From positions 1 through 45,686 of IMG/VR virus record IMGVR_UViG_2663763339_000005: 45,686 bases of DNA; one strand, 5' to 3'. The position numbers and the translations under genes are program-made. Source of the DNA: a virus. Lineage: Duplodnaviria; Heunggongvirae; Uroviricota; Caudoviricetes. The notes under the pieces are model-generated. The model was not told the DNA's origin, ran no database searches, and worked only from the letters and a program-made list of their open reading frames with translations. Positions 4,104 through 45,296 of the stretch are shown piece by piece (the stretch's first letter is position 1; each line of letters starts with the position of its first letter).

Positions 4104-4108
4104 CCGTT

Positions 4109-14925: not shown

Positions 14926-14936
14926 TCGTAATCAGA

Positions 14937-17793: not shown

Positions 17794-17824
17794 AGCTGAC
17801 CATATCGATGGGCAACTCATGCAA

Positions 17825-18477: not shown

Positions 18478-18672
18478 TCATCCATCATCACTTTGGATTG
18501 ATGTATATGCTCTCTTTTCTGACGTTAGTCTCCGACGGCAGGCTTCAATGACCCAGGCTGAGAAATTCCCAGACCCTTTTTGCTCAAGAGCGATGTTAAT
18601 TTGTTCAATCATTTGGTTAGGAAAGCGGATGTTGCGGGTTGTTGTTCTGCGGGTTCTGTTCTTCGTTGACAT
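18478..18672 (-). CDS. YlcI-like small protein (DUF3950-like)
   Basis: 64 aa MSTKNRTRRTTTRNIRFPNQMIEQINIALEQKGSGNFSAWVIEACRRRL...; recalled as DLP12 ylcI-like. Confidence 0.6.
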   Translation of the reverse strand: MSTKNRTRRTTTRNIRFPNQMIEQINIALEQKGSGNFSAWVIEACRRRLTSEKRAYTSIQSDDG

Positions 18673-18834
18673 GAGGTTGCCCCGTATTCAGTGTCGCTGA
18701 TTTGTATTGTCTGAAGTTGTTTTTACGTTAAGTTGATGCAGATCAATTAATACGATACCTGCGTCATAATTGATTATTTGACGTGGTTTGATGGCGTAGA
18801 TGCACGTTGTGACATGTAGATGATAATTATTATC

Positions 18835-19050
18835 ATTTTTGCGGGTCCTTTCCGGCGATCCGACAGGTTACGGGGCGGCGACCTCGCGGGTTTTCGCTAT
18901 TTATGAAAATTTTCCGGTTTAAGGCGTTTCCGTTCTTCTTCGTCATAACTTAATGTTTTTATTTAAAATACCCTCTGAAAAGAAAGGAAACGACAGGTGC
19001 TGAAAGCGAGCTTTTTGGCCTCTGTCGTTTCCTTTCTCTGTTTTTGTCCG
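18835..19050 (+). other. Helper prophage cos site (cosQ-cosN-cosB); cosN 12-nt cohesive end GGGCGGCGACCT at 18863-18874
   Basis: Sequence gcgggtcctttccggcgatccgacaggttacgGGGCGGCGACCTcgcgggttttcgctatttatgaaaattttccggtttaagg... matches the remembered lambda genome ends; immediately upstream of Nu1. Confidence 0.93.
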
Positions 19051-25005: not shown

Positions 25006-25281
25006 ATGTCGATTTACACAACCGCCCAGCTGCTGGCGGCAAATGAGCAGAAATTTAAGTTTGATCCGCTGTTTCTGCGTCTCTTTTTCCGTGAGAGCTA
25101 TCCCTTCACCACGGAGAAAGTCTATCTCTCACAAATTCCGGGACTGGTAAACATGGCGCTGTACGTTTCGCCGATTGTTTCCGGTGAGGTTATCCGTTCC
25201 CGTGGCGGATCCACCTCTGAATTTACACCGGGATATGTCAAGCCCAAGCACTTAGCATGGCTTTCTGAGGCTTTCGTGTAG
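25006..25281 (+). pseudogene. E: Major capsid protein E, 5' fragment (codons 1-81 intact, then 9 element-derived codons and stop), disrupted by insertion
   Basis: MSIYTTAQLLAANEQKFKFDPLFLRLFFRESYPFTTEKVYLSQIPGLVNMALYVSPIVSGEVIRSRGGSTSEFTPGYVKPKH matches lambda gpE N-terminus; divergence begins exactly after 25250. Confidence 0.92.
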
Positions 25282-25413
25282 TTGCTGGTTTTTACACTTA
25301 ATCTTTTGATAATAAAGAATAAGTTTATCTGGCGCTTTCACTGGATTTTCCTCGTTATCTGTGTGTTGCAATCATCTCTGTATTGCAGCTTGTATTGCTT
25401 TTTGGGGCTAAAA

Positions 25414-26649
25414 ATGGCTGGCGAGAACAAACTGAGCGACAAAGCACTTAAAGGATATCTGGGGAAACCCAGAGAAAAGCAGATCACCATTGCTGATGGA
25501 AAGGGGCTTTCTATTCGTGTGAGTACCAAGGGGGCTGTGAGCTTTGTTTTCTTCTACAGGTTAGCAGGTGGCCGGGCTGCTCCGGTCTGGCTAACGTTGG
25601 GTAAATATCCTGATATGTCACTCAAACAGGCAAGGGAAAAGCGCGACGAGTGCCGTGGTTGGTTGGCTGACAAACGTGATCCGCGTATCCAGATTAAGAT
25701 TCAGGCTGAAGAACGCTTAAAGCCGGTCACAGTGGAGGATGCACTAAATTACTGGTATGAAAATTACTGTAAGGTGCGTCGTAAAACTCATGCTGTAACG
25801 CTTGGCAGATTTCGAAAGCATATCTTTCCCTATATCGGTCATTTGCCCGTAAATGACACTCACCTATATGAATGGCTGGACTGTTTTGACCGAATTAAAC
25901 GTAATGCACCAGTTATGGCGGCGTATGTTTTTTCTGACACTAAATTAGCTCTTCGTTTTTGTCGGGTACGCCAGTACGCGACGTGTGATGCTTTAAAGGA
26001 TTTGCGCATGAGTGATGTGGGGCAGATTGCAGGTAAGCGGGATCGGGTTCTGGATGAAGCCGAACTGGGCCAGCTCTGGAAGGCAATTTTTGTCGAGCCT
26101 GATTTAAAACTAATGTCTGAATACACGCGAAAAATGTTTGTGCTTTGTACAGTATTTGGATGTCGAATGAGTGAAGCCCGATTATCTGAATGGAGCGAAT
26201 GGGATCTCGAAAGTTGGGTTTGGACTGTACCAAAAGATCACTCAAAAACTGGTGTTGAAATCGTCAGACCAGTACCTGAAATTCTACGACAGTGGGTAAC
26301 GGATGTTCACGAAGAGACAAAACATACTGGTTATGTGCTGGGAAGTCTGCGAATTAGAGAAAGCGTAAGCAAGATTGGGGGGAAAATCGGTAAACGTTTG
26401 GGCCATGAAAAACAATGGTCACTACACGACCTTAGAAGAACGCTATCTACTCATCTAAGTGATCTCGGTGTTGAATTTTATGTAGTAGAACAACTGTTAG
26501 GCCATGCGCTACCTGGCGTGGCAGGTGTTTACAACCGGAGTAAGTTTATGGCTAAAAAACTGGATGCTCTGGAACTCTGGACTACATATCTCAATAGCAT
26601 CGCAGGTGCTGATTCAAAAGTGACAATCCTCAAACAAAAGGCTGGTTAA
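25414..26649 (+). CDS. Tyrosine integrase, P4-like family (element integrase)
   Basis: ORF 25282..26649; start at Met 25414 (MAGENKLSDKALKGY...); C-terminal HDLRRT...GH...Y catalytic motifs; adjacent to left attachment junction. Confidence 0.88.
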   Translation: MAGENKLSDKALKGYLGKPREKQITIADGKGLSIRVSTKGAVSFVFFYRLAGGRAAPVWLTLGKYPDMSLKQAREKRDECRGWLADKRDPRIQIKIQAEERLKPVTVEDALNYWYENYCKVRRKTHAVTLGRFRKHIFPYIGHLPVNDTHLYEWLDCFDRIKRNAPVMAAYVFSDTKLALRFCRVRQYATCDALKDLRMSDVGQIAGKRDRVLDEAELGQLWKAIFVEPDLKLMSEYTRKMFVLCTVFGCRMSEARLSEWSEWDLESWVWTVPKDHSKTGVEIVRPVPEILRQWVTDVHEETKHTGYVLGSLRIRESVSKIGGKIGKRLGHEKQWSLHDLRRTLSTHLSDLGVEFYVVEQLLGHALPGVAGVYNRSKFMAKKLDALELWTTYLNSIAGADSKVTILKQKAG

Positions 26650-26650
26650 C

Positions 26651-26878
26651 ATGAAAAAAATGGCAATTGTTGATAAAAAGGGTCTGGAGTACATTCCTAA
26701 CATCGATCGTATGATCCGTGAGAAAGAATGTCGGGAGCTAACCACTCTTGCAAACAGCACACGCTGGAAGCTGGAGAAGGAAGGAAAATTTCCTAAGCGG
26801 ATCAAGATTGGTTCCACTGCTGTTGCATATCGTCTTTCAGAAGTGCAGGCATGGATTCGAGGTGAGTGGGTAGTTTAA
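26651..26878 (+). CDS. AlpA-like transcriptional regulator/excisionase
   Basis: 75 aa; ...RELTTLANSTRWKLEKEGKFPKRIKIGSTAVAYRLSEVQAWI is a typical AlpA HTH; directly downstream of integrase. Confidence 0.8.
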   Translation: MKKMAIVDKKGLEYIPNIDRMIREKECRELTTLANSTRWKLEKEGKFPKRIKIGSTAVAYRLSEVQAWIRGEWVV

Positions 26879-26904
26879 ATTATCTCAGAATAAAATATTA
26901 TGAA

Positions 26905-26938
26905 TTACTGATTTGAGAATTTGTACTCAAATCAGTAA
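26905..26938. terminator. Bidirectional hairpin between alpA and convergent membrane-protein gene
   Basis: TTACTGATTTGAG...CTCAAATCAGTAA 13-bp inverted repeat in AT-rich context. Confidence 0.5.
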
Positions 26939-26947
26939 TAACATTCT

Positions 26948-27484
26948 TTATAAGAGATTAAATCCAAATAAAGAGTAATCATATACCGGGGTGCATTGCA
27001 TCCCACTGAATATGCTGATGTTTTTTTCTGTTTCTATCCTTTTTTCAATAAGTTGTTGTATATTTTTACAGTACAATTTGTGTGTGATGTTATTATCGTA
27101 AGCCTGATATAGCAACGTCAATGTTGACGCTAGGAAACATACAGATAAAATTAAAATAATATATGCAGTTTTTTTATTTTTTGTCCATGATCTATTTGTT
27201 TGTGAAATATAAAGAATTCTGAGGTGGATAATGGTGAGAGACAATAGCAGGCCACTCAATAAAATAAGTATTGGGTTTGCGTATTTTATTAATGGTTGAG
27301 AGCAAAAAACTATTATAGCTCCTGTGACTGCGTATGAGAAAAAGGAGTGATTAAACTTCTTACTCCTTCTCTCAAGTATTTTAATTTCATCTTGTGTGGG
27401 GGTTTTAGATGCCTCTAATATAAGTTTATTGAATGTTTCTGTTATCTTGTTTTTTGTGTTTGTGGCTATTTTTTTTAGATTCAT
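26948..27484 (-). CDS. Hypothetical membrane protein (element cargo)
   Basis: 178 aa, very AT-rich, hydrophobic segments (AVTGAIIVFCSQPLI..., ILILLSGLLLSLTIIHL..., AYIILILSVCFLASTLTLL); opposite strand to core element genes. Confidence 0.5.
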   Translation of the reverse strand: MNLKKIATNTKNKITETFNKLILEASKTPTQDEIKILERRSKKFNHSFFSYAVTGAIIVFCSQPLIKYANPILILLSGLLLSLTIIHLRILYISQTNRSWTKNKKTAYIILILSVCFLASTLTLLYQAYDNNITHKLYCKNIQQLIEKRIETEKNISIFSGMQCTPVYDYSLFGFNLL

Positions 27485-27834
27485 AGCATTCTAACTCCCT
27501 TAACTTATTTATTACTTTCTCTTTATGATAAGAGAGGGGAATGACTTGGTAAAGTGATTTGTCATTAATAATGATAATCCTTGCGATAAATATTTCTGCA
27601 AGTTATTTATCTGTTTGTTGCTATCTTGTTAAGCGTTGGGTGTGGTTTATGTTTGGAGCGACTTTATTTAATCGTGATTTTATGGATTTATATTTATATC
27701 CTGTAAGATAAGCGCATGTTAGTTCAGGAGTAGTGTCAGATAAAATTATTCGGAGTAGAACTACCTTTTCTGTTTATTGCCAGTATTTACATAGCAATGC
27801 GCCGTAGTTACTCACATCACGGCGCTGATACTAA

Positions 27835-28137
27835 TTATTCAGATTCTTTGGCTTTACGCCGCTGGAGTTCTTCACGAGCGACGGCTACGAGTTGCCCGAT
27901 TTCCTCCGCTGCCTTGATGCCGATTTGTTCGACCTTAGCTAAGGCATCCAGTGAAGACACGAGGGGATTTTCTCCGCTTCCTTCTGCCTGGCGGCGGGCG
28001 ATCTCACCGCGCATGGCGGTTACTATGAATCCGGCGTTGCTTTCGCCGTCCAGTTTTACGGATTCCATGCCCTCCATAACATCGTGGGGAACCCTGATCG
28101 TTGTCATTTGCGATTTTGCATTTTTGTATACAGACAT
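27835..28137 (-). CDS. Putative ribbon-helix-helix transcriptional repressor of the element
   Basis: 100 aa; N-terminal TTIRVPHDVMEGMESVKL...GFIVTAMRGEIARRQ fits beta-strand/helix/helix RHH pattern; divergent from operon containing primase across an operator-rich region. Confidence 0.5.
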   Translation of the reverse strand: MSVYKNAKSQMTTIRVPHDVMEGMESVKLDGESNAGFIVTAMRGEIARRQAEGSGENPLVSSLDALAKVEQIGIKAAEEIGQLVAVAREELQRRKAKESE

Positions 28138-28139
28138 AG

Positions 28140-28345
28140 TTAATCACCAATTTGTTATGTGTATATCACTATACACAAAAGTGAGATATAAAAACACTTG
28201 CAATGTATATCACCACAATATAATGTATATCTCACATTATGGTAGCTATGTATCTCACAATGATCGATTCATAAAAACGACGAAACCCGGCAGTGCGCGA
28301 ACACTAACCGGGCTTCTAACCAAACCGTTAAACGAGGTAACGACT
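28140..28345. promoter_or_regulatory. Operator-rich divergent promoter region of the element
   Basis: Repeated TGTATATC(A/T)CAC-like motifs in both orientations (tgtgtatatcactatacaca, gtgagatata, tgtatatcacc, tgtatatctcac, tgtatctcac). Confidence 0.55.
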
Positions 28346-28711
28346 ATGGCTGGAACACAGCATACCCAAACTCACCCTAAATTTATATACATCTTTCTGG
28401 CGCTACATCGCGATCGCATAGCAGATGGAGCAACTACGGTACATGTAGCCGCTGACACGCTGGTTGATGCCCGCAAGATGGTTAAGGAGATGGGCTATAC
28501 TGCGGCTTTCTGGAAAGGGCGGGAAGAAAACACGCTGTTTATTCAGAAATGTGAAAACAATTTCATCTGGCGTTTTATCGCCCTGAGTACGGCACAACCG
28601 CGCGTGATTACCATCGAGGCCACCAGCGAACAGGAAGCCCGCCAGCAATCCCCAACTGGCTGCGTGATGATATTCGCCGCCCGTATTCGTCAGGAGGTGT
28701 GCCATGAATGA
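28346..28711 (+). CDS. Hypothetical protein, first gene of element rightward operon
   Basis: ORF 27797..28711 trimmed to Met 28346 preceded by GAGG; 121 aa; internally repeated small domain; function unknown. Confidence 0.45.
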   Translation: MAGTQHTQTHPKFIYIFLALHRDRIADGATTVHVAADTLVDARKMVKEMGYTAAFWKGREENTLFIQKCENNFIWRFIALSTAQPRVITIEATSEQEARQQSPTGCVMIFAARIRQEVCHE

Positions 28712-28928
28712 TCTTTATTTTAAAGTGCTGACACATGCTGAAAACGCGCTCGTTTGTGGCAAAAATATGCGAGAAATCTTATCAACTTGGCTTGATGGGA
28801 CAACAAATGCGGAACACGATGAACGGGATGCTAATTTAGCTGGAGCGTTAATTACGTTACTTGATCCTGTCATCAAAGAGCTGGATGAAGCTATAAAAAT
28901 ACACGACCAGAGCTATACCGGAGAATAA
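28704..28928 (+). CDS. Hypothetical protein
   Basis: 74-aa ORF translationally coupled to upstream gene. Confidence 0.4.
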   Translation: MNDLYFKVLTHAENALVCGKNMREILSTWLDGTTNAEHDERDANLAGALITLLDPVIKELDEAIKIHDQSYTGE

Positions 28929-28930
28929 AA

Positions 28931-29218
28931 ATGAAAAATAAATTTTCTGGCTTTATTGCCAGCGGTCAAACTCATTCAAAAATCAGCCTTGGGGATATTT
29001 TCAAAGATAGCTATGGCTATCGAGTAAAGATTATTTCGGTTGATGATCGCCGTGTCTCTTATTTGCGTGATGGTTATGATTTTGAATGTGTTATGCCGCG
29101 TCAGCAGTTCGAAAGAGATTTCATTCTGGTAAAAAATTGCAAGACAGATAATCAGAGGCGTGCCGCAGGCTATATCCGCAAAATTCGGGCAATGTTAGTT
29201 GCCGGAGGTAACAAATGA
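28931..29218 (+). CDS. Hypothetical protein
   Basis: 95-aa ORF immediately upstream of and overlapping primase start. Confidence 0.4.
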   Translation: MKNKFSGFIASGQTHSKISLGDIFKDSYGYRVKIISVDDRRVSYLRDGYDFECVMPRQQFERDFILVKNCKTDNQRRAAGYIRKIRAMLVAGGNK

Positions 29219-31035
29219 AACGTGCTCCGAACTTAAAATACCAACCGCGCGACAAAATGACAGAAGTCATCATTTTTGCTGGCAGTGATGCCTGGAGCCA
29301 TGCAAAAGAATGGAATGAATGGGCGGGTAAGCATATTGCAGCAGATGATACACCACCAGTAATTCTGGGTACGGAACAACTGGAAAACCTGGATGATATG
29401 CAAATTATCGATGAAGGCCGTCATTATGTGCGTGTTTATCGTGCCGGAAAGATCGCAGAGAAAAATCTGACGAAGGTTGCGACATTACTTGCTATTGCAG
29501 GCGTAAAGGAAGCACGTTGTTACCGTAGCTTTGTTGATCGAGAGCCTGAAGACTGGACTCCGCGCCTTGTCGGCCTAAAAGCTGAAGCGGAGCATGGGGA
29601 AAGTCTGGTGATTGAACTGCCAGTGAAGAAGGCAGAGCGCAAAAATGACGAGCGTGCTTCATCTTTGGCGTTGAATCAGATGGGGGCCAGCCAGCGCGGT
29701 GAAGTTCTCCTGGCACATTACGGCGGCGAACTGGCAATCAATGCCGACTCTGACACCGTTCATCATTACAACGGCGTTGTATGGGAGCCGGTTCAGGATA
29801 AAGAGTTACAGCGTGCTATGGCGCAGATTTTCATTGATGCGGAGATCAGCTATTCGCAGAACGCCATTAAATCGGCGGTAGATACCATGAAGTTAAGTTT
29901 GCCTGTAATGGGGAATACAGCCCGTAACCTGATTGGATTCAGTAACGGGGTATTTGATACCAGAACAGGTAATTTTCGGGATCATAACAAAAACGACTGG
30001 TTGTTAATTGCCAGTGAATTACCTTTCAGCCCACCAGCAGAGGGGGAAACGCTGGCAACACATGCGCCGAATTTCTGGAAGTGGTTGCGCCGTTCGGTGG
30101 CTGAGAATGACCGCAAGGCAGATCGCGTACTGGCGGCATTATTCATGGTGCTGGCGAACCGGTACGACTGGCAGTTATTCATTGAGGTAACAGGGCCGGG
30201 GGGAAGTGGTAAAAGCGTGATGGCGGAGATTTGCACCATGCTGGCGGGTAAGGCTAATACAGTATCAGCAAGCATGAAGGCGCTGGAAGATGCAAGGGAA
30301 CGTGCGTTAGTGGTTGGCTTTTCGCTGATTATCATGCCGGATATGACCCGCTACGCTGGTGATGGGGCAGGGATTAAGGCCATTACAGGCGGTGACAAGG
30401 TGGCAATTGACCCGAAACACAAAGCCCCCTATTCAACGCGTATTCCGGCAGTAGTGCTGGCGGTTAACAATAACGCCATGTCATTCAGTGACCGCAGCGG
30501 GGGGATCTCACGTCGTCGGGTGATATTCAATTTTTCGGAAGTTGTACCGGAGAACGAACGCGATTCGATGCTGGCGGAAAAAATAGAAGGTGAGCTGGCG
30601 GTAGTGATTCGTCATCTGCTTACACGGTTTGCTGATCAGGACGAAGCCAGACGCCTGTTATATGAGCAGCAGAAATCTGAAGAAGCACTGGCGATAAAGC
30701 GAGAGGGGGATTCGCTGGTGGACTTCTGCGGCTATCTCATGGCATCGGTAATGTGTGATGGCCTGTTAGTGGGTAATGCTGAAATTGTGCCATTCAGCCC
30801 ACGCAGGTATCTCTATCATGCCTATCTGGCTTATATGAGGGCACATGGGTTTGGTAAACCTGTAACACTGACGCGCTTCGGTAAAGATATGCCGGGGGCA
30901 ATGGCGGAATATGGCAGGGAGTATATGAAACGGAAAACGAAGCACGGTTTGCGTTCAAACGTGACACTGACGGAGGAATCAGAAGACTGGATGCCATCAT
31001 GTGTATCGGTCACTAATGACGATAGCAAAAATTAA
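29215..31035 (+). CDS. Primase/helicase, phage-plasmid P4-family (D5_N + SF3 helicase-like C-terminal domain)
   Basis: 606 aa; Walker A GPGGSGKS; region NGVFDTRTGNFRDHNKNDW...; followed by iteron array. Confidence 0.85.
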   Translation: MKRAPNLKYQPRDKMTEVIIFAGSDAWSHAKEWNEWAGKHIAADDTPPVILGTEQLENLDDMQIIDEGRHYVRVYRAGKIAEKNLTKVATLLAIAGVKEARCYRSFVDREPEDWTPRLVGLKAEAEHGESLVIELPVKKAERKNDERASSLALNQMGASQRGEVLLAHYGGELAINADSDTVHHYNGVVWEPVQDKELQRAMAQIFIDAEISYSQNAIKSAVDTMKLSLPVMGNTARNLIGFSNGVFDTRTGNFRDHNKNDWLLIASELPFSPPAEGETLATHAPNFWKWLRRSVAENDRKADRVLAALFMVLANRYDWQLFIEVTGPGGSGKSVMAEICTMLAGKANTVSASMKALEDARERALVVGFSLIIMPDMTRYAGDGAGIKAITGGDKVAIDPKHKAPYSTRIPAVVLAVNNNAMSFSDRSGGISRRRVIFNFSEVVPENERDSMLAEKIEGELAVVIRHLLTRFADQDEARRLLYEQQKSEEALAIKREGDSLVDFCGYLMASVMCDGLLVGNAEIVPFSPRRYLYHAYLAYMRAHGFGKPVTLTRFGKDMPGAMAEYGREYMKRKTKHGLRSNVTLTEESEDWMPSCVSVTNDDSKN

Positions 31036-31048
31036 ACTTATGGAATAA

Positions 31049-31280
31049 CTGTTCACCACTGTTCACCCTGTCATAAATATCTTTTATATCAGTATATTAT
31101 AGGGTGAACAGTTATTTATGAACTGTTCACCAAACTATTCACTGTTCACCTTTTTGATTGTTTATTGAGCTTCAAGGGTGAACAGTGGTGAACAGTTGGT
31201 GAATAGTTTTTGTGAAACTGTTCACCCATTAACATTATGAATTAAAAGAGAAAATATCAAAAGGTGAACAGGTGAAGGGT
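31049..31280. repeat. Element replication origin: ~10 copies of TGTTCACC/GGTGAACA iterons in both orientations
   Basis: ctgttcaccactgttcaccc, gggtgaacagtt, gaactgttcacc, cactgttcacc, gggtgaacagtggtgaacagttggtgaatag, actgttcaccc, aggtgaacaggtgaaggg read directly. Confidence 0.8.
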
Positions 31281-31322
31281 TAAAACGCAAAAATTTTAAT
31301 TTACTGCTGTGAGATAAAGCCT

Positions 31323-31568
31323 ATGACAGCGAAGCACACAAAAAAATCACAATCGCACGCCCTTGATTTGACGGAACACTGGTTAAGGGTGTCGATAAAA
31401 ATCATCGACCGCAACGCCGGGGAAGGATACGCGAAAGCACATCCCGAACTGATTAGCGCATTCATGACAACGGCGGCTGCAAACTTTGCCACTCTGACCG
31501 AACGGGAGATTGCTGAAGCGGAGGAAGTGACAACAATCAATATTAAGTCCGGAGAGCAGGCAGCATGA
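31323..31568 (+). CDS. Hypothetical protein
   Basis: 81-aa ORF downstream of ori, coupled to SSB gene. Confidence 0.4.
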   Translation: MTAKHTKKSQSHALDLTEHWLRVSIKIIDRNAGEGYAKAHPELISAFMTTAAANFATLTEREIAEAEEVTTINIKSGEQAA

Positions 31569-32014
31569 CGGCGCAAATATCAGTTTACGGGCGGTTGGTG
31601 GACGACCCGCAGACAAAACAGACCAGCAAGGGCACCCCCATGACGCTGGCGCGTATGGCGGTATCACTGCCCTGCAGTCAGTCGGATGACGGTCAGGCGA
31701 CGATGTGGTTATCTGTCCTGGCGTTTGGCAGACAAGCCGACGCGCTGGCAAAGCATCACAAAGGCGAACTCCTGAGCGTGGCGGGTAACATGCAGATGAG
31801 CCAGTGGACTGGACAGAACGGCGAAACGCGGCAGGGCTGGCAGGTTATCGCAGACAGCGTAATCAGTGCGCGATCGGTGCGACCGGGCGGCAATAAAGGC
31901 CAACAGGGGCAGGCTACTGACGCACTGAACAGAGCAAAACAACAGGCAGATCAGCAAGGAAGCCAGCCACCAGTGGGAGATAATGAGCAATGGGGAGATG
32001 ATATCCCGTTTTAA
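31565..32014 (+). CDS. Single-stranded DNA-binding protein (SSB)
   Basis: 149 aa; OB-fold N-terminus, Gly/Gln-rich linker and acidic C-terminal tail ...GDDIPF characteristic of SSB. Confidence 0.85.
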   Translation: MTAQISVYGRLVDDPQTKQTSKGTPMTLARMAVSLPCSQSDDGQATMWLSVLAFGRQADALAKHHKGELLSVAGNMQMSQWTGQNGETRQGWQVIADSVISARSVRPGGNKGQQGQATDALNRAKQQADQQGSQPPVGDNEQWGDDIPF

Positions 32015-32231
32015 ATATTGCCAATAAAAAAAGGCCGGAAAAAATAAATTTTCCGGCATGCTACATAAATCCCGACCAAAGGGAGTGAAGATATTAACAC
32101 TAATTTTCCGCACTGAAGTTGTCACCCCAAAACTTTATACAACATTGCACTCGGTTGCATGTATTCGCATGACAAATATCGGTGATAGCATATATCCACA
32201 ATTATTTTTAATGAATGCAAAGAGGATGCGT

Positions 32232-33272
32232 ATGGTTGATTTATATTCGCCTACTCAGCTTGTACAGGTGGTTAATGCTGTAGATGTACAAAAACAACTA
32301 AATGCGTTGTTTACCAGTTTGTTTTTTACTCGCTCGGTAATGTTTGAATCGCGCGATATTATTCTTGATACAATCGACGATCCAAATATCCCAATTGCAG
32401 CGTTTTGTTCTCCTATGGTGGGTAGTAAAGTTTCACGTGACGAAGGGTACGAATCAAAAACAATTCGTCCAGGCTATATGAAGCCGAAAAGCAGCATTGA
32501 TCCAAATAAGTTAGCTGTGCGCCCTGCTGGTGTATCACCTGAGCAATACAATGCTTTTGGGGCGCGTAATATTAAAGTTAAACAGGCGATTGTAAATCAA
32601 GCTAAAGCTATTCGTGCACGTATTGAATGGCTTGCTGTTCAGGCAATCACAACGGGGAAAAATATCATTGAGGGCGATGGTATTGAACGTTATGAGCTGG
32701 ACTGGAATATTAAACCACAAAATATCATCACTCAGTCTGGCGGTGCTGAGTGGTCAGGTAAGGATAAAGAAACTTTTGATCCAAATGATGATATTGAGAG
32801 CTACGCAGAATTTAGTGAGGGCGTCACTAATATTATCATTATGGGCGGTAATGTATGGAAGAAATACCGTTCATTCAGAGCGATAAAAGAGGCTCTGGAT
32901 ACCCGTCGTGGTTCTAATTCCGAACTGGAAACGGCCCTTAAAGACCTTGGTGATTCGGTGAGTTTTAAAGGGTATATGGGCGATGTTGCGATTGTTGTTT
33001 ACAGCGGGCGTTATACCGACGAGGACGGAACAGAAAAACATTTCCTTGATCCTGATTTGATGGTGCTTGGCAATACGGCTCTTCAGGGGATTGTCGCCTA
33101 TGGCGGTATTCAGGATCCGGAGCTAATCCGAATGGGGCTGACTAAAGCCGAACTTGCACCGAAAAACTATATTGTGCCTGGTGATCCGGCTATTGAATAT
33201 GTGCAGACACATTCAGCACCACAGCCAATACCGGCCCGCATCAATCGTTTTGTTACCGTTCGCATTGGCTAA
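32232..33272 (+). CDS. Major capsid protein, lambda gpE family (element-encoded divergent paralogue)
   Basis: ORF 32058..33272; start Met 32232 preceded by AGAGGA; clear alignment to lambda E (ITQSGGAEWSGKDKETFDPNDDIESYAEF...NIIIMGGNVWKKYRSFRAIKEALDTRRGSNSELETALKDLG..YKG..GDVAIVVYSG); ~346 aa versus 341 for lambda E. Confidence 0.88.
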   Translation: MVDLYSPTQLVQVVNAVDVQKQLNALFTSLFFTRSVMFESRDIILDTIDDPNIPIAAFCSPMVGSKVSRDEGYESKTIRPGYMKPKSSIDPNKLAVRPAGVSPEQYNAFGARNIKVKQAIVNQAKAIRARIEWLAVQAITTGKNIIEGDGIERYELDWNIKPQNIITQSGGAEWSGKDKETFDPNDDIESYAEFSEGVTNIIIMGGNVWKKYRSFRAIKEALDTRRGSNSELETALKDLGDSVSFKGYMGDVAIVVYSGRYTDEDGTEKHFLDPDLMVLGNTALQGIVAYGGIQDPELIRMGLTKAELAPKNYIVPGDPAIEYVQTHSAPQPIPARINRFVTVRIG

Positions 33273-33281
33273 GGGGGAGCA

Positions 33282-33623
33282 ATGGCTACTCATTACACTG
33301 AACTCATGGCTGGCACTGAAGCACTGGTGACTACGCTGGGGATATTTTCAGCTAATAAAGGGGTAATTCCTGCATTTACGCCACTGATGCAGGAAGATGC
33401 AACAGGTGCACTGGTAGTATGGGATGGTTCGAGCGTAGGTAAAGCGGTTTATGTTTCCGCTGTACAAATCGACACCGCGAAAAAAACACAGGCTCAGGTC
33501 TATAAGACAGGTGTCTTAAATGTTGATGCTCTGAACTGGCCTGAGTCTGTTAAAGAACTGTCAGTAAAGGTTGCAGCGTTTGTTGGCTCAGGTATTTCTG
33601 TTCAGCCGCTGGCTCGTGTGTAA
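33282..33623 (+). CDS. Head decoration protein, lambda gpD family (element-encoded divergent paralogue)
   Basis: 113 aa; PLMQEDATGALVVWDGSSVGKAVYVSAV...YKTGVLNVDALNWPE...FVGSGISV aligns with gp[28 protein letters not shown]...[15 protein letters not shown]...FAGTAISI. Confidence 0.8.
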   Translation: MATHYTELMAGTEALVTTLGIFSANKGVIPAFTPLMQEDATGALVVWDGSSVGKAVYVSAVQIDTAKKTQAQVYKTGVLNVDALNWPESVKELSVKVAAFVGSGISVQPLARV

Positions 33624-33634
33624 AGGGGGATACA

Positions 33635-34018
33635 ATGCAGAATGATTACAATGACCTTAAGCCAATTGCCGAAATGATGTACCCGAATCAAGCTGTAGAG
33701 GAATTAAAAGCTATCGCTGACAAAATGTGTTTAAGCGAGCGCCTTGTTGATATGAATCAGGTGATGGAAATTACAACCCTGAGTCGTCGTACACTGCTAA
33801 ACCTTGAGGCTAGTGGAGAGTTCCCGGAGCGTGTGCAGGTTACGGAAGGGCGTAAGGCCTGGTATTTAAGTGAAGTGATCGACTGGATAAATAATATTCC
33901 TCGCGCTTCTGAATATTGCCGCGTACCTGTCCCAAAAAAGCCAGATGCGGCGCTATGCCTCAAGATTGAGCGTGTACGCCGCAATGCACGGGATGGTCGC
34001 TATAAGCTGATTGGTTGA
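33635..34018 (+). CDS. Small HTH protein adjacent to element cos (candidate packaging-redirection / Nu1-like DNA-binding factor)
   Basis: 127 aa; MNQVMEITTLSRRTLLNLEASGEFPERVQVTEGRKAWYLSEVIDWI is a MerR/AlpA-like winged HTH; ends just upstream of cos-like site. Confidence 0.45.
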   Translation: MQNDYNDLKPIAEMMYPNQAVEELKAIADKMCLSERLVDMNQVMEITTLSRRTLLNLEASGEFPERVQVTEGRKAWYLSEVIDWINNIPRASEYCRVPVPKKPDAALCLKIERVRRNARDGRYKLIG

Positions 34019-34029
34019 TGAAATTAGGG

Positions 34030-34250
34030 CCCGCTCTGGCTGGCGGGTCCTTTCCGGCGATCCAGGACGTTACGGGGCGTCAGGCGCGCAGATTCTTGCT
34101 ATTTATGACAATTTTCTGCGATTTGCCGTTTCTGTTCTTCTTCGTTGTAACTATATGTTATTAATGGAAATGCCACCTAAAAAGAAAGGAAATGGTAAGC
34201 GCTATTTTGAGCTAAAAACAGCTTAACCGTTTCCTTTCTCCAAAATTTAC
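34030..34250 (+). other. Element cos-like site (lambda-like cosQ, variant cosN GGGCGTCAGGCG at 34075-34086, cosB-like R/IHF elements)
   Basis: ggcgggtcctttccggcgatccaggacgttacgGGGCGTCAGGCGcgcagattcttgctatttatgacaattttctgcgatttgccgtttctgttcttcttcg...aaaaagaaaggaaatgg aligns block-by-block with the helper cos at 18840-19040. Confidence 0.8.
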
Positions 34251-34260
34251 TGAGGCGGCT

Positions 34261-34686
34261 ATGAATCCATGCGCAGAAGTCATGACAACTATCAAACTAA
34301 GCGGATCTTTAGCTTCTTTGTTCGCCAGAGAACATCAGCGCCTTATCGGTCCGACGCGTGAGGCATTAAGGGTATTATCAGCCACTATTCCGGGATTTGA
34401 GAAATTCATGAACACTAGCAAGGCTTGAGGACTCACTTTCGCCGTGTTTGTGGATAAAAATAATGTCGCGCAGGATGATCTCGATTTTCCAAATGGTGGT
34501 CGTACGATTCGAATTGTTCCGATCATTATGGGGAGTAAGCGTGCTGGTGTTCTGCAAACCATTCTTGGCGCTTTCTTGGTGGTTGGTGGTGTTCTGGGGG
34601 CAACGATAGGGCAAGCATGGAACGGTGGTGTGTGGAGCGGCAAGTATTTTCTATTGGCAGAAGCCCATTCCGCCAAGATAGGCTAG
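34261..34686 (+). pseudogene. Tail assembly protein I-like ORF interrupted by a single in-frame TGA (34426-34428)
   Basis: N-part MNPCAEVMTTIKLSGSLASLFAREHQRLIGPTREALRVLSATIPGFEKF and C-part ...RTIRIVPIIMGSKRAGVLQTILGAFLVVGG resemble helper gpI (LYGDLQRFGRRIDLRVKTGAEAIRALATQLPAFRQKL / AVIHIVPRVAGAKSGGVFQIVLGAAAIAG); same frame across the stop. Confidence 0.45.
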
Positions 34687-34781
34687 ACGTATAAGATCGG
34701 TTACAATCTATAAATCAGCTGTTGAATTATTGAATTTTAACCATATTTATCAGATGGACTTCATTCAAAAAGGTAACTTTG

Positions 34782-35468
34782 ATGGCCGGACAATTAGACG
34801 AAGCAGCAAAACAGATTTTGGGTACCTTACTGGCAGATTTTACAGATCGAGGGTTAACTGCACAGGATTTAAAAAATGGTTATGAAGGCCCGAACATCAA
34901 TGCGCTAGCTACTGCAGTATGCAACGTCGCTGATTTTACATCTGTAGATTTTGAAGTTGCCTTTGGCGATCTCGAAAAAAGCAAACTAATCAAAACTGGC
35001 CCCATGAAAATGTTCGATAATGATCACAATAGCTCTGTGATCATTATTGCTTCTTATAGCCTACGTGAATATGTTTATTTGACGGAGGCTGGATACAAGG
35101 AGTCCAGGAAAGTACCAAATCGCCCACAACGTGTTCAGCGTATAGTCAATAATCTAACGATCACCGGCGGACATTTCAGCAATACGCAATTAGGGCAGGG
35201 AGAGGTCGTTTCCCAAACCCAAAACATCACAAGCAGTTCCGATTCTGAAATAGTTGCTAAGCTGATTTCTATCATTGAAGAACAGGGGCAAGTAGTTAAC
35301 AGCGATCAACGTTCTGATATTGAAGCAGCTGTGGCAGCCGCTAATGAAGGTGATGGTAAAGAAGCGAAATCATTGCTGTCTAAAGTATGCGGTCCTGTTT
35401 GGGAGTCTGTGCAACCAGTAATATGGCCGATCATTGGTGAGTTGGTTAAGAAAGGGCTCGGGATTTAA
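34782..35468 (+). CDS. Hypothetical protein (element cargo, unknown function)
   Basis: ORF 34779..35468; ATG 34782 preceded by AGGT; 228 aa, acidic, no recognised family. Confidence 0.45.
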   Translation: MAGQLDEAAKQILGTLLADFTDRGLTAQDLKNGYEGPNINALATAVCNVADFTSVDFEVAFGDLEKSKLIKTGPMKMFDNDHNSSVIIIASYSLREYVYLTEAGYKESRKVPNRPQRVQRIVNNLTITGGHFSNTQLGQGEVVSQTQNITSSSDSEIVAKLISIIEEQGQVVNSDQRSDIEAAVAAANEGDGKEAKSLLSKVCGPVWESVQPVIWPIIGELVKKGLGI

Positions 35469-35660
35469 TTTAATAAATTCTAAAAGGGCTGTTTGGGTAG
35501 TATTTTTATGGGGCTCTTCAATTAAAAGGAGTCATAGGGTCAAACGATGTGCCTATGACTCCTGGATAAAGCCATCAGAGAATATTAGTGTTAACAATTT
35601 CTCTTCAGCCCTTGTTTATACGATGCCAGCTTCAGAACCGAATCAACGCTCATGCGATCT

Positions 35661-35954
35661 TTAGCATCTCGGTAATGACAGTAAGTTATTATTCCATCGA
35701 CCATCAGCATAAGTACGTATAAATTTCCGCCCTCCCCCTCCTGGATCAACGACACCTACATCAGCACGTTTGCCATAACTATCAGTGACATAGAAAGTAT
35801 GTAACTTGTTCTCAATTGAATTAACTACATCTGCCACAGTCCACTTACTTCCAGGGGGATTAAATTGAGGGCTTCCCACATGAGTAATGTGTTCATGAAG
35901 GGCGTTCGAACTGGAGAGAGTAATACAAGTTAATCGTACATCAACCATCTTCAA
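35661..35954 (-). CDS. Hypothetical small protein, possibly DUF3892-like (element cargo near right junction)
   Basis: 97 aa with ITHVG and NNLLSLPRC motifs recalled as DUF3892-like; opposite strand, AT-rich. Confidence 0.4.
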   Translation of the reverse strand: MKMVDVRLTCITLSSSNALHEHITHVGSPQFNPPGSKWTVADVVNSIENKLHTFYVTDSYGKRADVGVVDPGGGGRKFIRTYADGRWNNNLLSLPRC

Positions 35955-36174
35955 CTCCTTATTTACTGTGAAAAATCATAAGATACAGCATGTATCGAAA
36001 TACAGCAGGGTGAACAATTTCGATTTACGAGGACTTAGCAAAGTCTCTTTCTCTTAAACTGTGGGCTTGTATTGCAGGTTGTATTGCAACTGTAGCTAAG
36101 CAATATCAGTTGTAAGCTTTATTTCTTTTACAGTCAATCGTATAGCATCGTATTTGACTCATGTAGCCCAAGCA

Positions 36175-36955
36175 TGAGGTGAATCCGCAGATGACCCTGC
36201 GTCGCCTGCCGGATGAAGATCCACAGAATCTGGCGGACCCGGCTTACCGCCGCCGTCGCATCATCCTGCAGAACATGCGAGACGAAGAGCTGGCCATTGC
36301 TCAGGTCGAAGAGATGCAGGCAGTTTCTGCCGTGCTTAAGGGCAAATACACCATGACCGGTGAAGCCTTCGATCCGGTTGAAGTGGATATGGGCCGCAGT
36401 GTGGCGAACAACATCACGCAGTCCGGCGGTACGGAGTGGAGCAAGCGTGACAAGTCCACGTATGACCCGACCGACGATATCGAAGCCTACGCGCTGAACG
36501 CCAGCGGTGTGGTGAATATCATCGTGTTTGATCCGAAAGGCTGGGCGCTGTTCCGTTCCTTCAAAGCCGTCAGGGAGAAGCTGGATACCCGTCGCGGCTC
36601 TAATTCCGAGCTGGAGACAGCGGTAAAAGACCTGGGCGAAGCGGTGTCCTATAAGGGGATGTATGGCGATACGGCGATCGTCGTGTATTCCGGACAGTAC
36701 GTGGAAAACGACGTCAAAAAGAACTTCCTTCCGGACAACACGATGGTGCTGGGGAACACTCAGGCACGCGGTCTGCGCACCTATGGCTGCATTCAGGATG
36801 CGGACGCACAGCGCGAAGGTATTAACGCCTCTGCCCGCTACCCGAAAAACTGGGTGACCACCGGCGATCCGGCGCGTGAGTTCACCATGATTCAGTCAGC
36901 ACCGCTGATGCTGCTGGCTGACCCTGATGCGTTCGTGTCCGTACAACTGGCGTAA
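36175..36955 (+). pseudogene. E: Major capsid protein E, 3' fragment (codon 82 to stop), separated from 5' fragment by the inserted element
   Basis: ...HEVNPQMTLRRLPDEDPQNLADPAYRRRRIILQNMRDEELAIAQVEEMQ... matches lambda gpE; in-frame TAG immediately upstream of the junction; 245 nt (5' part) + 781 nt = 1026 nt, the exact length of lambda E. Confidence 0.92.
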
Positions 36956-36996
36956 TCATGGCCCTTCGGGGCCATTTTCTCTCTGTGGAGGAGTCC

Positions 36997-37392
36997 ATGA
37001 CGAAAGATGAACTGATTGCCCGTCTTCAGGTGCTGGGTGAGCAACTGAACCGTGATGTCAGCCTGACGGGGACGAAAGAAGAACTGGCACTCCGTGTGGC
37101 AGAGCTGGAAGAGGAGCTTGATGACACGGATGACGCTGCCGGTCAGGACACATCTGTCAGCCCGGAAAATGCGCTGACCGGACATGAAAATGAGGTTGTA
37201 TCAGCGCAGCCGGATACCGTGATTGATACGGCTGATCTGGTCACGGTTGTGGCACTGGTGACGCTGCATACTGATGCACTTCACGCCACGCGGGATGAGG
37301 CTGTGGCATTTGTGCTGCCGGGAACGGCGTTCCGTGTCTCTGCCGGTGTGGCAGCTGAAATGACAGAGCGCGGCCTGGCCAGAATGCAATAA
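36997..37392 (+). CDS. FI: DNA packaging protein FI
   Basis: ORF 36958..37392 with start at MTKDELIARL...; matches lambda gpFI. Confidence 0.92.
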   Translation: MTKDELIARLQVLGEQLNRDVSLTGTKEELALRVAELEEELDDTDDAAGQDTSVSPENALTGHENEVVSAQPDTVIDTADLVTVVALVTLHTDALHATRDEAVAFVLPGTAFRVSAGVAAEMTERGLARMQ

Positions 37393-37403
37393 CGGGAGGC
37401 GCT

Positions 37404-37757
37404 GTGGCTGATTTCGATAACCTGTTCGATGCTGCCATTGCCTGCGCCGATGAAACGATACGCGGGTACATGGGAACGTCAGCCACCATGACATCCGGTG
37501 AGCAGTCCGGTGCTGTGATACGTGGTGTTTTTGATGACCCTGAAAATATCAGCTATGCCGGACAGGGCGTGCGCGTTGAAGGCTCCAGCCCGTCCCTGTT
37601 TGTCCGGACTGATGATGTGCGGCAGCTGCGGCGCGGCGACACGCTGACCATCGGTGAGGAAAACTTCTGGATAGACCGGATTTCGCCGGATGATGGCGGA
37701 AGCTGTCATCTCTGGCTTGGGCGGGGCGTACCGCCTGCCGTTAACCGTCGCCGCTGA
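37404..37757 (+). CDS. FII: Head-tail connector FII
   Basis: 117 aa matching lambda gpFII (MADFDNLFDAAIA.ADETIRGYMGTSATMTSGEQSGAVIRGVFDDPENISYAGQG...). Confidence 0.94.
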   Translation: MADFDNLFDAAIACADETIRGYMGTSATMTSGEQSGAVIRGVFDDPENISYAGQGVRVEGSSPSLFVRTDDVRQLRRGDTLTIGEENFWIDRISPDDGGSCHLWLGRGVPPAVNRRR

Positions 37758-37768
37758 AAGGGGGATGT

Positions 37769-38347
37769 ATGGCCATAAAAGGTCTTGAGCAGGCCGTTGA
37801 AAACCTCAGCCGTATCAGCAGAACGGCGGTGCCCGGTGCCGCCGCAATGGCCATTAACCGCGTTGCTTCATCCGCGATATCGCAGTCGGTGTCACAGGTT
37901 GCCCGTGAGACAAAGGTACGCCGGAAACTGGTAAAGGAAAGGGCCAGGCTGAAAAGGGCCACGGTCAAAAATCCGCAGGCCAGAATCAAGGTTAACCGGG
38001 GGGATTTGCCCGTAATCAAGCTGGGTAATGCGCGGGTTGTCCTTTCGCGCCGCAGGCGTCGTAAAAAGGGGCAGCGTTCATCCCTGAAAGGTGGCGGCAG
38101 CGTGCTTGTGGTGGGTAACCGTCGTATTCCCGGCGCGTTTATTCAGCAACTGAAAAATGGCCGGTGGCATGTCATGCAGCGTGTGGCCGGGAAAAACCGT
38201 TACCCCATTGATGTGGTGAAAATCCCGATGGCGGTGCCGCTGACCACGGCGTTTAAACAAAATATTGAGCGGATACGGCGTGAACGTCTTCCGAAAGAGC
38301 TGGGCTATGCGCTGCAGCATCAACTGAGGATGGTAATAAAGCGATGA
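37769..38347 (+). CDS. Z: Tail completion protein Z
   Basis: 192 aa matching lambda gpZ. Confidence 0.93.
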   Translation: MAIKGLEQAVENLSRISRTAVPGAAAMAINRVASSAISQSVSQVARETKVRRKLVKERARLKRATVKNPQARIKVNRGDLPVIKLGNARVVLSRRRRRKKGQRSSLKGGGSVLVVGNRRIPGAFIQQLKNGRWHVMQRVAGKNRYPIDVVKIPMAVPLTTAFKQNIERIRRERLPKELGYALQHQLRMVIKR

Positions 38348-38739
38348 AACATACTGAACTCCGTGCAGCCGTACTGGATGCACTGGAGAAGCATGACACC
38401 GGGGCGACGTTTTTTGATGGTCGCCCCGCTGTTTTTGATGAGGCGGATTTTCCGGCAGTTGCCGTTTATCTCACCGGCGCTGAATACACGGGCGAAGAGC
38501 TGGACAGCGATACCTGGCAGGCGGAGCTGCATATCGAAGTTTTCCTGCCTGCTCAGGTGCCGGATTCAGAGCTGGATGCGTGGATGGAGTCCCGGATTTA
38601 TCCGGTGATGAGCGATATCCCGGCACTGTCAGATTTGATCACCAGTATGGTGGCCAGCGGCTATGACTACCGGCGCGACGATGATGCGGGCCTGTGGAGT
38701 TCAGCCGATCTGACTTATGTCATTACCTATGAAATGTGA
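38344..38739 (+). CDS. U: Tail terminator protein U
   Basis: 131 aa matching lambda gpU ([54 protein letters not shown]...). Confidence 0.94.
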
Positions 38740-38746
38740 GGACGCT

Positions 38747-39487
38747 ATGCCTGTACCAAATCCTACAATGTCGGTGAAAGGTGCCGGGACCACCCTGTGG
38801 GTTTATAAGGGGAGCGGTGACCCTTATGCGAATCCGCTTTCAGACGTTGACTGGTCGCGTCTGGCAAAAGTTAAAGACCTGACGCCCGGCGAACTGACCG
38901 CTGAGTCCTATGACGACAGCTATCTCGATGATGAAGATGCAGACTGGACTGCGACCGGGCAGGGGCAGAAATCTGCCGGAGATACCAGCTTCACGCTGGC
39001 GTGGATGCCCGGAGAGCAGGGGCAGCAGGCGCTGCTGGCGTGGTTTAATGAAGGCGATACCCGTGCCTATAAAATCCGCTTCCCGAACGGCACTGTCGAT
39101 GTGTTCCGTGGCTGGATCAGCAGTATCGGTAAGGCGGTGACGGCGAAGGAAGTGATCACCCGCACGGTGAAAGTCACCAATGTGGGACGTCCGTCGATGG
39201 CAGAAGATCGCAGCACGGTAACAGCGGCAACCGGTATGACCGTGACGCCAGCCAGCGCTTCCGTAGTGAAAGGGAAGAGCACCACGCTGACCGTGGCATT
39301 CCAGCCGGAAGGCGCAACCGACAAGAGCTTCCGTGCGGTGTCAGCGGATAAAACAAAAGCCACCGTGTCGGTCAGTGGTATGACCATCACCGTGAATGGC
39401 GTTGCTGCAGGTAAGGTCAACATTCCGGTCGTATCCGGTAATGGTGAGTTTGCTGCGGTTGCAGAAATCACCGTCACCGCCAGTTAA
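38747..39487 (+). CDS. V: Major tail protein V (with C-terminal Ig-like domain)
   Basis: ORF 38717..39487 with start at [36 protein letters not shown]...; matches lambda gpV. Confidence 0.94.
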
Positions 39488-39502
39488 TCCGGAGAGTCAG
39501 AG

Positions 39503-39925
39503 ATGTTCCTGAAAACCGAATCATTTGAACATAACGGTGTGACCGTCACGCTTTCTGAACTGTCAGCCCTGCAGCGTATTGAGCATCTCGCCCTGATGAA
39601 ACGGCAGGCAGAACAGGCGGAGTCAGACAGCAATCGGAAGTTTACTGTGGAAGACGCCATCAGAACCGGCGCGTTTCTGGTGGCGATGTCCCTGTGGCAT
39701 AACCATCCGCAGAAGACGCAGATGCCGTCCATGAATGAAGCCGTTAAACAGATTGAGCAGGAAGTGCTTACCACCTGGCCCACGGAGGCAATTTCTCATG
39801 CTGAAAACGTGGTGTACCGGCTGTCCGGTATGTATGAGTTTGTTGTGAATAATACCCCTGAACAGACAGAGGACGCCGGGCCTGCAGAGCCTGTTTCTGC
39901 GGGAAAGTGTTCGACGGTGAGCTGA
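39503..39925 (+). CDS. G: Tail assembly chaperone G
   Basis: 140 aa matching lambda gpG; slippery heptamer GGGAAAG at 39901-39907 near the 3' end. Confidence 0.93.
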   Translation: MFLKTESFEHNGVTVTLSELSALQRIEHLALMKRQAEQAESDSNRKFTVEDAIRTGAFLVAMSLWHNHPQKTQMPSMNEAVKQIEQEVLTTWPTEAISHAENVVYRLSGMYEFVVNNTPEQTEDAGPAEPVSAGKCSTVS

Positions 39926-40341
39926 GTTTTGCCCTGAAACTGGCGCGTGAGATGGGGCGACCCGACTGGCGTGCCATGCTTGCCGGGATGTCATCCACGG
40001 AGTATGCCGACTGGCACCGCTTTTACAGTACCCATTATTTTCATGATGTTCTGCTGGATATGCACTTTTCCGGGCTGACGTACACCGTGCTCAGCCTGTT
40101 TTTCAGCGATCCGGATATGCATCCGCTGGATTTCAGTCTGCTGAACCGGCGCGAGGCTGACGAAGAGCCTGAAGATGATGTGCTGATGCAGAAAGCGGCA
40201 GGGCTTGCCGGAGGTGTCCGCTTTGGCCCGGACGGGAATGAAGTTATCCCCGCTTCCCCGGATGTGGCGGACATGACGGAGGATGACGTAATGCTGATGA
40301 CAGTATCAGAAGGGATCGCAGGAGGAGTCCGGTATGGCTGA
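39907..40341 (+). CDS. T: Tail assembly protein T (expressed as G-T by -1 programmed frameshift)
   Basis: 144-aa ORF in -1 frame relative to G, beginning at the slippery site; matches lambda gpT. Confidence 0.9.
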   Translation: MFDGELSFALKLAREMGRPDWRAMLAGMSSTEYADWHRFYSTHYFHDVLLDMHFSGLTYTVLSLFFSDPDMHPLDFSLLNRREADEEPEDDVLMQKAAGLAGGVRFGPDGNEVIPASPDVADMTEDDVMLMTVSEGIAGGVRYG

Positions 40342-43919: not shown

Positions 43920-43923
43920 TCCC

Positions 43924-45236: not shown

Positions 45237-45296
45237 TGCAAAATGTTTTATGTGAAACCGCCTGCGGGCGGTTTTGTCGTTTATGGAGCGTGAGGA

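Follow-up and report, generated by a model that had tools for sequence, protein, structure and literature searches.

The 45,686-nucleotide window analysed here (the whole of IMG/VR record IMGVR_UViG_2663763339_000005, positions 1 to 45,686) contains a lambdoid E. coli prophage whose major capsid gene E is divided at 25250/36175 by an insert. The insert is very probably a helper-embedded phage-inducible chromosomal island (PICI) of the 11capE family, inserted at the site designated E:Phage_cap_E:80 in an otherwise intact-looking lambdoid prophage at tRNA-Arg. This arrangement is already known. The family was described as "helper-embedded PICIs" (HE-PICIs) by Tommasini, Mageeney and Williams (NAR Genom Bioinform 2023; PMC10111431), and the window holds a further copy, which differs in its cargo end and in the chromosomal site of its helper. 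An earlier note, made from the sequence of the window alone, had taken the arrangement to be undescribed for E. coli satellites; it had in fact been published in 2022–2023 as '11capE', with 201 instances at the same site (PMC10111431).

The two parts of E can be followed directly in the sequence. The 5′ fragment, which starts at 25006, is lambda-type gpE up to His82 (codon CAC, 25249–25251), of which the helper contributes 81 codons and two bases; the reading frame then continues into a foreign tail, LAWLSEAFV, and stops at 25279–25281. On the other side of the insert, an in-frame TAG (36164–36166) precedes the restart of E at 36175. When 25006–25250 is joined to 36175–36955, the 245 and 781 nt add up to 1026 nt and encode a 341-amino-acid protein, which aligns collinearly from end to end with the lambda major capsid protein of known structure (7vi9; E 1e-223) and is identical at 338 of 341 positions to the product of the uninterrupted 1026-nt E of a prophage in strain Yu5. 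The empty site of Yu5 aligns with the left attachment site (attL) to the left of the core and with the right attachment site (attR) to the right of it, and the core differs solely by a synonymous change, with CCG in Yu5 for CCC. The restored E junction that is predicted after satellite excision reads ...GTCAAGCCCAAGCATGAGGTG..., and precise excision could thus restore E in this copy. These observations agree with the earlier note, which had read E as gpE for codons 1–81 followed by foreign sequence and a stop after 9 codons, with resumption in frame at 36175 just downstream of a TAG and with 1026 nt for the sum of the two pieces. Its proposal that site-specific excision would regenerate E is compatible with the junctions, and such excision has been demonstrated for the type element (PMC10111431). 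The presence of a ~10.9 kb satellite-like element within E is likewise borne out by the junctions, the content of the insert, and the empty site in Yu5. Only the coordinates that had been given for it (25241–36174) are adjusted, as the element proper comprises 25251–36164 plus one 10-bp copy of the core.

The junctions are marked by the decamer AGCCCAAGCA, which occurs exactly twice in the window, once at each end of the element (Table 1). In shuffled sequence 0.05 matches were expected, and none of 100 shuffles contained two copies, in line with the 10-bp direct repeat noticed previously. The identity between the two core copies ends at 10 bp, with no extra matching base on either flank. The block spans codons 79–82 of E, and the att centres are located at 25245.5 and 36169.5. 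In the current Pfam Phage_cap_E profile, the att site falls at positions 75–78, compared with 80 in the published site name, a shift that we attribute to the version of the Pfam profile. The arm-type repeats that had been proposed near both ends were also found. The motif TGTATTGCA is present three times, always beside the ends of the element (25379, 36068, and 36080), and a fourth copy of its core, TGTATTGC, lies at 25391, so each arm contains a doubled motif. A degenerate third copy (TGTGTTGC) is located at 25362 in the int-proximal arm. The predicted attP junction of the satellite reads ...CTCATGTAGCCCAAGCACTTAGCATGG....

The type element of the family, Eco567.11capE, is an 11-kb PICI of E. 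coli NRG857c that resides in E of the lambdoid prophage 50icd, is bordered by an identity block of 10 bp (attL/attR), and encodes a capsid protein of its own; another 290 elements have been assigned to 13 other late-gene sites (PMC10111431). The integrase of the window is identical to the NRG857c 11capE integrase at 410 of 411 positions, and this near-identity places it in the E-site subclade of the HE-PICI clade and makes a phylogeny unnecessary. From the core inward, attL is base-for-base identical in NRG857c and in two other strains, AREA_C483 and AST215. The published signature of the family consists of doubled, co-oriented TGTATTGC motifs that lie upstream (81 ± 2 bp) and downstream (132 ± 2 bp) of the attP centre (PMC10111431), and the distances of the doubled motifs in the window (~81–82 and ~132–133 bp) match these values. 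The int, alpA, and pri genes are all on the + strand, co-oriented with the lambda-type E that they split. The published order of zones is Integration, Bro, Replication, and Late (PMC10111431). The Integration, Replication, and Late zones of the window follow this order, and the position of the Bro zone is occupied by genes for a membrane protein, a YlcI/YnfO protein, and an Icd-like protein, the same content as in the type element; no Bro-N domain or immunity RNA was detected in the window's copy. The resulting gene order is int-alpA, variable zone, pri-ssb, and capsid-decoration-cos, with the main genes co-oriented with E. A comparison with known satellites, which the earlier note had proposed, therefore leads to the HE-PICI family feature by feature. 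The window and NRG857c copies share the insertion point in E, attL, the motif positions, and gene order, and they are 99.1% identical at the nucleotide level over the first ~8.9 kb. They differ in the last ~2 kb, where the window contains fragments of an I gene and genes for a 229-amino-acid protein and a DUF3892 protein, whereas NRG857c contains HEPN and DUF262 genes and a short open reading frame (ORF) that begins like Nu1. They also differ in the site of the helper (tRNA-Arg in the window versus icd in NRG857c), in the core allele (AGCCCAAGCA versus AACCCAAGCA), and in the similarity of the satellite cos to the cos of its own helper (78% over 150 bp in the window and a published 90% over 258 bp in 11capE).

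All ORFs of the element are intact. Pfam and PHROG scans confirmed the AlpA protein, the replication module, and the capsid genes that the earlier note had listed, and its assignment of a separate cos site is supported by alignment with the cos of the helper. The capsid protein of the satellite is 41% identical to helper E, and its nearest solved structure is 3bqw, the capsid protein of an E. coli CFT073 'prophage' (E 2.6e-121). The decoration protein is 38% identical to helper D. A 127-amino-acid AlpA-type winged helix-turn-helix (HTH) protein with a 35-amino-acid N-terminal extension is encoded directly upstream of the satellite cos. No portal, protease, terminase, or tail genes were revealed by family scans of the element's ORFs; together with the cos region, this absence supports helper-dependent packaging. 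In the variable zone, a 304-amino-acid ORF (27797–28711) is probably an artefactual upstream extension of the Icd-like gene. In RefSeq annotations of identical copies, the Icd-like gene comprises just the last 366 nt (28346–28711), and a YlcI/YnfO gene occupies the opposite strand. No Rfam match was obtained at gathering scores, and at E up to 1 there were only two meaningless microRNA matches and a weak, sub-threshold match to SymR (28279–28351, minus strand; 33.6 bits with a cut-off of 61, E 0.0028). The latter is situated just upstream of the start of the Icd-like gene, which it overlaps, and possibly represents a small antisense regulator, or else a chance match.

The cos region of the satellite (34043–34192) aligns without gaps to the helper cos (18841–18990), and the flanks of cosN and the R3, R2, and R1-like elements of cosB are conserved between the two. 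However, the 12-mer that corresponds to cosN in the satellite (GGGCGTCAGGCG, 34075–34086) differs at 5 of 12 positions from the cohesive-end sequence of the helper, GGGCGGCGACCT, which is that of lambda. The GGGCGTCAGGCG variant is common to 14 of 15 related elements, and the lambda form is present in all six sampled helper cos sites. No phage record exceeded 80% identity to the satellite cos region, and no helper with a matching cos was identified in this search. The conserved change in the cohesive end, the variable cargo end described below, and the retention of helper-type cosB repeats, unlike in EcCICFT073, together with an HTH protein beside cos that lacks sequence similarity to Rpp, are small additions to what was reported in PMC10111431. 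The composite has two co-oriented cos regions that are 15.2 kb apart (18873 and 34075); as a speculation, the second cos of an unexcised satellite could interfere with packaging of the helper.

The behavior of the type element upon induction indicates how such a composite may work. When NRG857c was treated with mitomycin C, the composite excised at 1 h and replicated, and excision of the satellite began from 2 h and reached 42–98%; the predicted attB and attP junctions were confirmed by deep-sequencing reads, and excision was also detected by quantitative PCR (PMC10111431). By analogy, the integrated satellite in the window would block production of the helper major capsid protein. Upon SOS induction, the whole composite would excise and replicate, and the satellite would be copied passively. 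Late transcription of the helper would then read into the co-oriented satellite and drive int and alpA, leading to late excision. Because the main genes of the satellite are co-oriented with E, this read-through of late transcripts is probably the trigger. A pattern scan detected no terminator-like site on the + strand between codon 82 of E and int, a weak result given that promoter and terminator counts equalled those in shuffled sequence. A tyrosine-recombinase crossover within the A[A/G]CC[C/G]AAGCA core would restore the 1026-nt E and release a circle of ~10.9 kb, which would replicate with its own primase-helicase and single-stranded DNA-binding protein (SSB). Presumably, the terminase of the helper would package the circle by means of the circle's own lambda-type cos, as suggested by the homology of the two cos regions and the lack of terminase genes in the element. 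Transfer of the satellite and a role of its E-like and D-like proteins are likewise putative. The retention of these two proteins, the difference between GGGCGTCAGGCG and GGGCGGCGACCT, and the block of helper E in cis led us to consider a 'partly capsid-forming' satellite. Such an element would use the portal, protease, and scaffold of the helper to assemble a shell of its own, and its cohesive ends would not be compatible with those of the helper. We regard this as doubtful. In other Gram-negative PICIs, the capsid gene is reportedly dispensable for transfer.

The arrangement is frequent. The left junction was found in 173 of 5,426 complete E. coli genomes (~3%; 400-bp probe spanning attL, at least 80% covered). 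The left-end 30-mer of the element was found in 44 IMG/VR contigs and is joined to the 5′ fragment of E in all 44 of them; several E alleles are represented, one of them strongly divergent (L017). The same element thus recurs in E of other lambdoid prophages, where the earlier note had suggested that it be sought. Full-length copies are 99.8–99.9% identical in four complete genomes, and copies with at least 80% coverage are present in 26. Near-identical copies reside in prophages at the Qin locus (AREA_C483) and at the DLP12 locus next to appY/ompT (AST215), whose flanking late genes are only 96.4–98.5% identical to those of the window. The element therefore moves between prophages and is of more recent origin than the sequence around it. 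The helpers of both of these copies are damaged, by an IS3-associated deletion from hokD to D in AREA_C483 (L001) and by a frameshifted J in AST215 (L003), so some satellites are stranded in helpers that are unable to support them.

Several points weigh against assigning the insert to this family as a functional satellite. Plaque-forming helper or satellite particles were not recovered by the authors who described the family (PMC10111431). A search with the exact 28-nt attP junction gave no match in IMG/VR, and 50,697 GenBank phage records did not contain the element, except for a 78% match to the primase. Free or encapsidated copies are thus without independent support. In the window's copy, no protein with a Bro-N domain was detected in the Pfam scan, and no C4/isrK-type RNA was matched by Rfam, even at E up to 1. 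Finally, the 5 differences among the 12 positions of cosN make cleavage of the satellite cos by the helper terminase an assumption.

Some of these points would also be expected if the element, the helper, or both were immobile relics, with the insert a fixed scar that inactivates a decaying prophage. The failure of NRG857c to yield particles (PMC10111431), the lack of the attP form in public viral contigs, and the near-identical copies in the defective prophages of AREA_C483 and AST215 are consistent with this explanation, but we consider it unlikely. The ORFs of the element are intact, its integrase is one residue away from one that was shown to excise, and no damage is seen in either att arm or in any of the four motif half-sites. 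The other head and tail genes of the helper in the window are full length. Moreover, when prophages are compared, divergence within the element is approximately one-tenth of that in its flanks, which implies that it moved recently.

The right end of the element bears on a second alternative. The final ~2 kb (34191–36164) is exchanged between otherwise near-identical copies and constitutes a cargo hotspot: NRG857c has its HEPN and DUF262 genes in this position (28939–30913 of L002), and TIR or Abi genes are found there in other genomes. In the window, the two I-type fragments look like a broken late gene that was captured in the cargo end, and neither here nor in the variable zone did PADLOC or NCBIfam match a known defence system. 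PICI ends are already known to carry cargo and defence genes. Such content would suit an integrative island that carries cargo or defence genes, or acts as a brake on lysis, for which E is merely a safe and widely available landing site and which is not packaged by the surrounding prophage. That packaging was never demonstrated for the family and that the cosN 12-mer is not the helper's are in agreement with this scenario. However, it leaves without obvious use the co-oriented lambda-type cos with its R3, R2, and R1-like elements and the E-like and D-like genes, all of which were kept. The capsid gene is closest to 3bqw, and 11capE resembles the transferable PICI EcCICFT073 in size, gene order, and part of its sequence (PMC10111431). 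We therefore find a mere landing site very improbable and favor a helper-dependent satellite.

The alleles of the core are informative about how the element spreads. The core is polymorphic across copies, A[A/G]CC[C/G]AAGCA (loci L001–L048), and among 14 elements with both ends captured, the attL and attR alleles are concordant in 12 and mixed in 2. This agreement fits crossover inside the core combined with a preference for matching sites. The AGCCCAAGCA allele of the window, identical at both ends, is among the rarer ones and occurs once in 47 other attL copies examined. Spread mainly by homologous recombination of the flanking late genes, with a minor role of the integrase and an inherited site, would find ample homology in head and tail genes that are 96–98% identical between prophages, and lambdoid prophages are notoriously mosaic. 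Nevertheless, this route has only a slim chance of being the principal one, since the same junction is found in clearly different E alleles, including that of L017, and the covariation of core alleles in 12 of 14 pairs is what crossover inside the core would produce. In addition, precise excision of the integrase type was observed experimentally, and related integrases target 13 other late-gene sites (PMC10111431). An assembly artefact or chimera, which the earlier note had named as grounds for discarding the element and for which no supporting evidence was found, is for all practical purposes ruled out by the recurrence of the same junctions in 173 complete genomes and in 44 viral contigs that were predicted independently.

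The helper is a lambdoid prophage at the tRNA-Arg (DLP12-type, intD) site, and its left 24 kb are 99.5% identical to the annotated Yu5 prophage, which likewise adjoins tRNA-Arg (intD). The ORF lengths of Nu1, A, B, C, D, and FI through I equal those annotated in the Yu5 prophage, and E is the sole visible defect of the helper within the window. The helper is a full-length relative of the DLP12 cryptic prophage (window positions 1–19000). Its passenger genes, recognized by the 99.5% identity to Yu5, include emrE, the ybcK recombinase gene, a porin gene (14937–16034, minus strand), and iss/bor (~17825–18166, minus strand).

Table 1. Coordinates of the helper prophage, the embedded satellite, and their attachment and cos sites in the window
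Feature	Position	Strand	Basis or remarks
Helper, left part	1–25250	+	int, early region, Q, lysis genes, cos, Nu1, A, W, B, C, D, E codons 1–81 plus two bases
Helper cosN, 12-base cohesive-end sequence GGGCGGCGACCT	18873–18884	+	Exact match, single occurrence; just upstream of Nu1; lambda sequence
5′ fragment of helper E	25006–25250	+	245 nt; Pfam Phage_cap_E profile positions 1–78; sequence read
attL copy of 10-bp identity block AGCCCAAGCA	25241–25250	+	Junction also in NRG857c, AREA_C483, AST215, and 44 IMG/VR contigs
Helper-embedded PICI, 11capE family (very probable)	25251–36164	+	10,914 bp between core copies
int-proximal doubled motif TGTATTGC-n4-TGTATTGC	25379–25398	+	Starts ~132–133 bp downstream of att centre
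Tyrosine integrase, 411 aa	25414–26649	+	Arm-DNA-bind_3 and Phage_integrase domains
AlpA-family regulator, probable excisionase	26651–26878	+	Pfam Phage_AlpA, E 2.8e-15
Variable zone at 'Bro zone' position	26948–28711	.	Domain scans; RefSeq annotation of identical copies
Predicted membrane protein, 178 aa	26948–27484	-	Variable zone
YlcI/YnfO protein	27835–28137	-	Variable zone
Icd-like protein	28346–28711	+	Variable zone
Replication zone	28704–32014	+	Pfam D5_N, DUF5906, Pox_D5, SSB; PHROG matches; also holds 74-aa and 81-aa proteins
DUF4222 protein	28931–29218	+	Replication zone
D5_N/DUF5906/Pox_D5 primase-helicase	29215–31035	+	Pfam
SSB	31565–32014	+	Pfam
E-type major capsid protein of satellite, 346 aa	32232–33272	+	Pfam Phage_cap_E, E 2.4e-41
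Lambda D-type head decoration protein of satellite, 113 aa	33282–33623	+	Pfam HDPD, E 4.5e-15
Second AlpA-type winged-HTH protein, 127 aa	33635–34018	+	Pfam Phage_AlpA, phrog_2790, PDB 8c3t AlpA
Satellite cos region	34043–34241	+	Alignment with helper cos; R3, R2, R1-like cosB elements
Variable cargo end	34261–35954	.	phrog_32, phrog_28570, phrog_8224; DUF3892
Two fragments of lambda I-type tail assembly gene	34261–34428, 34444–34686		phrog_32, profile positions 2–50 and 66–121 of 203
229-aa protein, function not assigned	34779–35468		phrog_28570
DUF3892 protein	35661–35954	-	Domain scan
Other-arm doubled motif TGTATTGC-n4-TGTATTGC	36068–36087	+	Ends ~81–82 bp upstream of att centre
attR copy of 10-bp identity block AGCCCAAGCA	36165–36174	+	Exact match search, sequence read
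3′ fragment of helper E	36175–36955	+	781 nt; Pfam Phage_cap_E profile positions 94–328
Rest of helper late operon in window	36956–45686	+	FI, FII, Z, U, V, G/T, H, M, L, K, I; all full length

The element can be compared with three other classes of satellites. With capsid-forming PICIs (cf-PICIs), it has in common that capsid-shell genes of its own are carried. The cf-PICIs are described as encoding everything that is needed for building and filling capsids (bioRxiv 10.1101/2022.09.08.507074), a module of capsid, protease, portal, connectors, and small terminase. Measured by that description, the element does not belong to this class, as family scans of its ORFs found only the capsid and decoration proteins and no portal, protease, or terminase subunit. 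P4-like satellites share with it the type of integrase arm-binding domain, a D5/P4-alpha-type primase-helicase, an Icd-like gene, cos, and a cargo hotspot near cos. They differ from it in their helper, which is P2-like rather than lambdoid, and the element in the window has E- and D-type shell genes. Neither Sid, Psu, nor Delta was named in Pfam, PHROG, and NCBIfam scans of its ORFs, and no C4/isrK RNA was matched, so we rejected this class as well. The 'P4-like integrase' of the earlier note is thus correct for the domain type but not as a class, since the element is a Gram-negative PICI.

The element also resembles Gram-negative PICIs of the EcCICFT073 type, with which it shares size, a unidirectional int-alpA-pri layout, a cos-type site, the lack of the small terminase subunit gene terS, and an E-family capsid homologue. 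The type element 11capE itself has the size, gene order, and some of the sequence of the transferable EcCICFT073 in common, and packaging by lambda and phi80 is reported for related Gram-negative PICIs (PMC10111431). EcCICFT073 does not contain a phage cosB and needs the Rpp protein to retarget the small terminase subunit TerS (Fillol-Salom et al. 2018, 2019; PMC6092414, PMC6739421). The 127-amino-acid HTH protein, the only ORF that was compared individually, showed no sequence match, at E up to 1, to either Rpp structure (6HLK or 6HN7). An Rpp-dependent PICI of the EcCICFT073 type was rejected, as this HTH protein matches only an AlpA structure and the helper-type cosB is conserved. In summary, the window confirms that the HE-PICI family is common, with its junction in ~3% of complete E. 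coli genomes. The embedded arrangement is a striking form of cis-regulatory parasitism; its publication in 2023 included induction experiments and 491 additional examples (PMC10111431). By residing in its helper's gene for the capsid protein, the satellite would tie its own release to the helper's late programme and hold capsid production hostage until it leaves. Unlike EcCICFT073, which is chromosomal and acts on its helper only in trans, the element in the window lies inside its helper and keeps the helper-type R elements of cosB.

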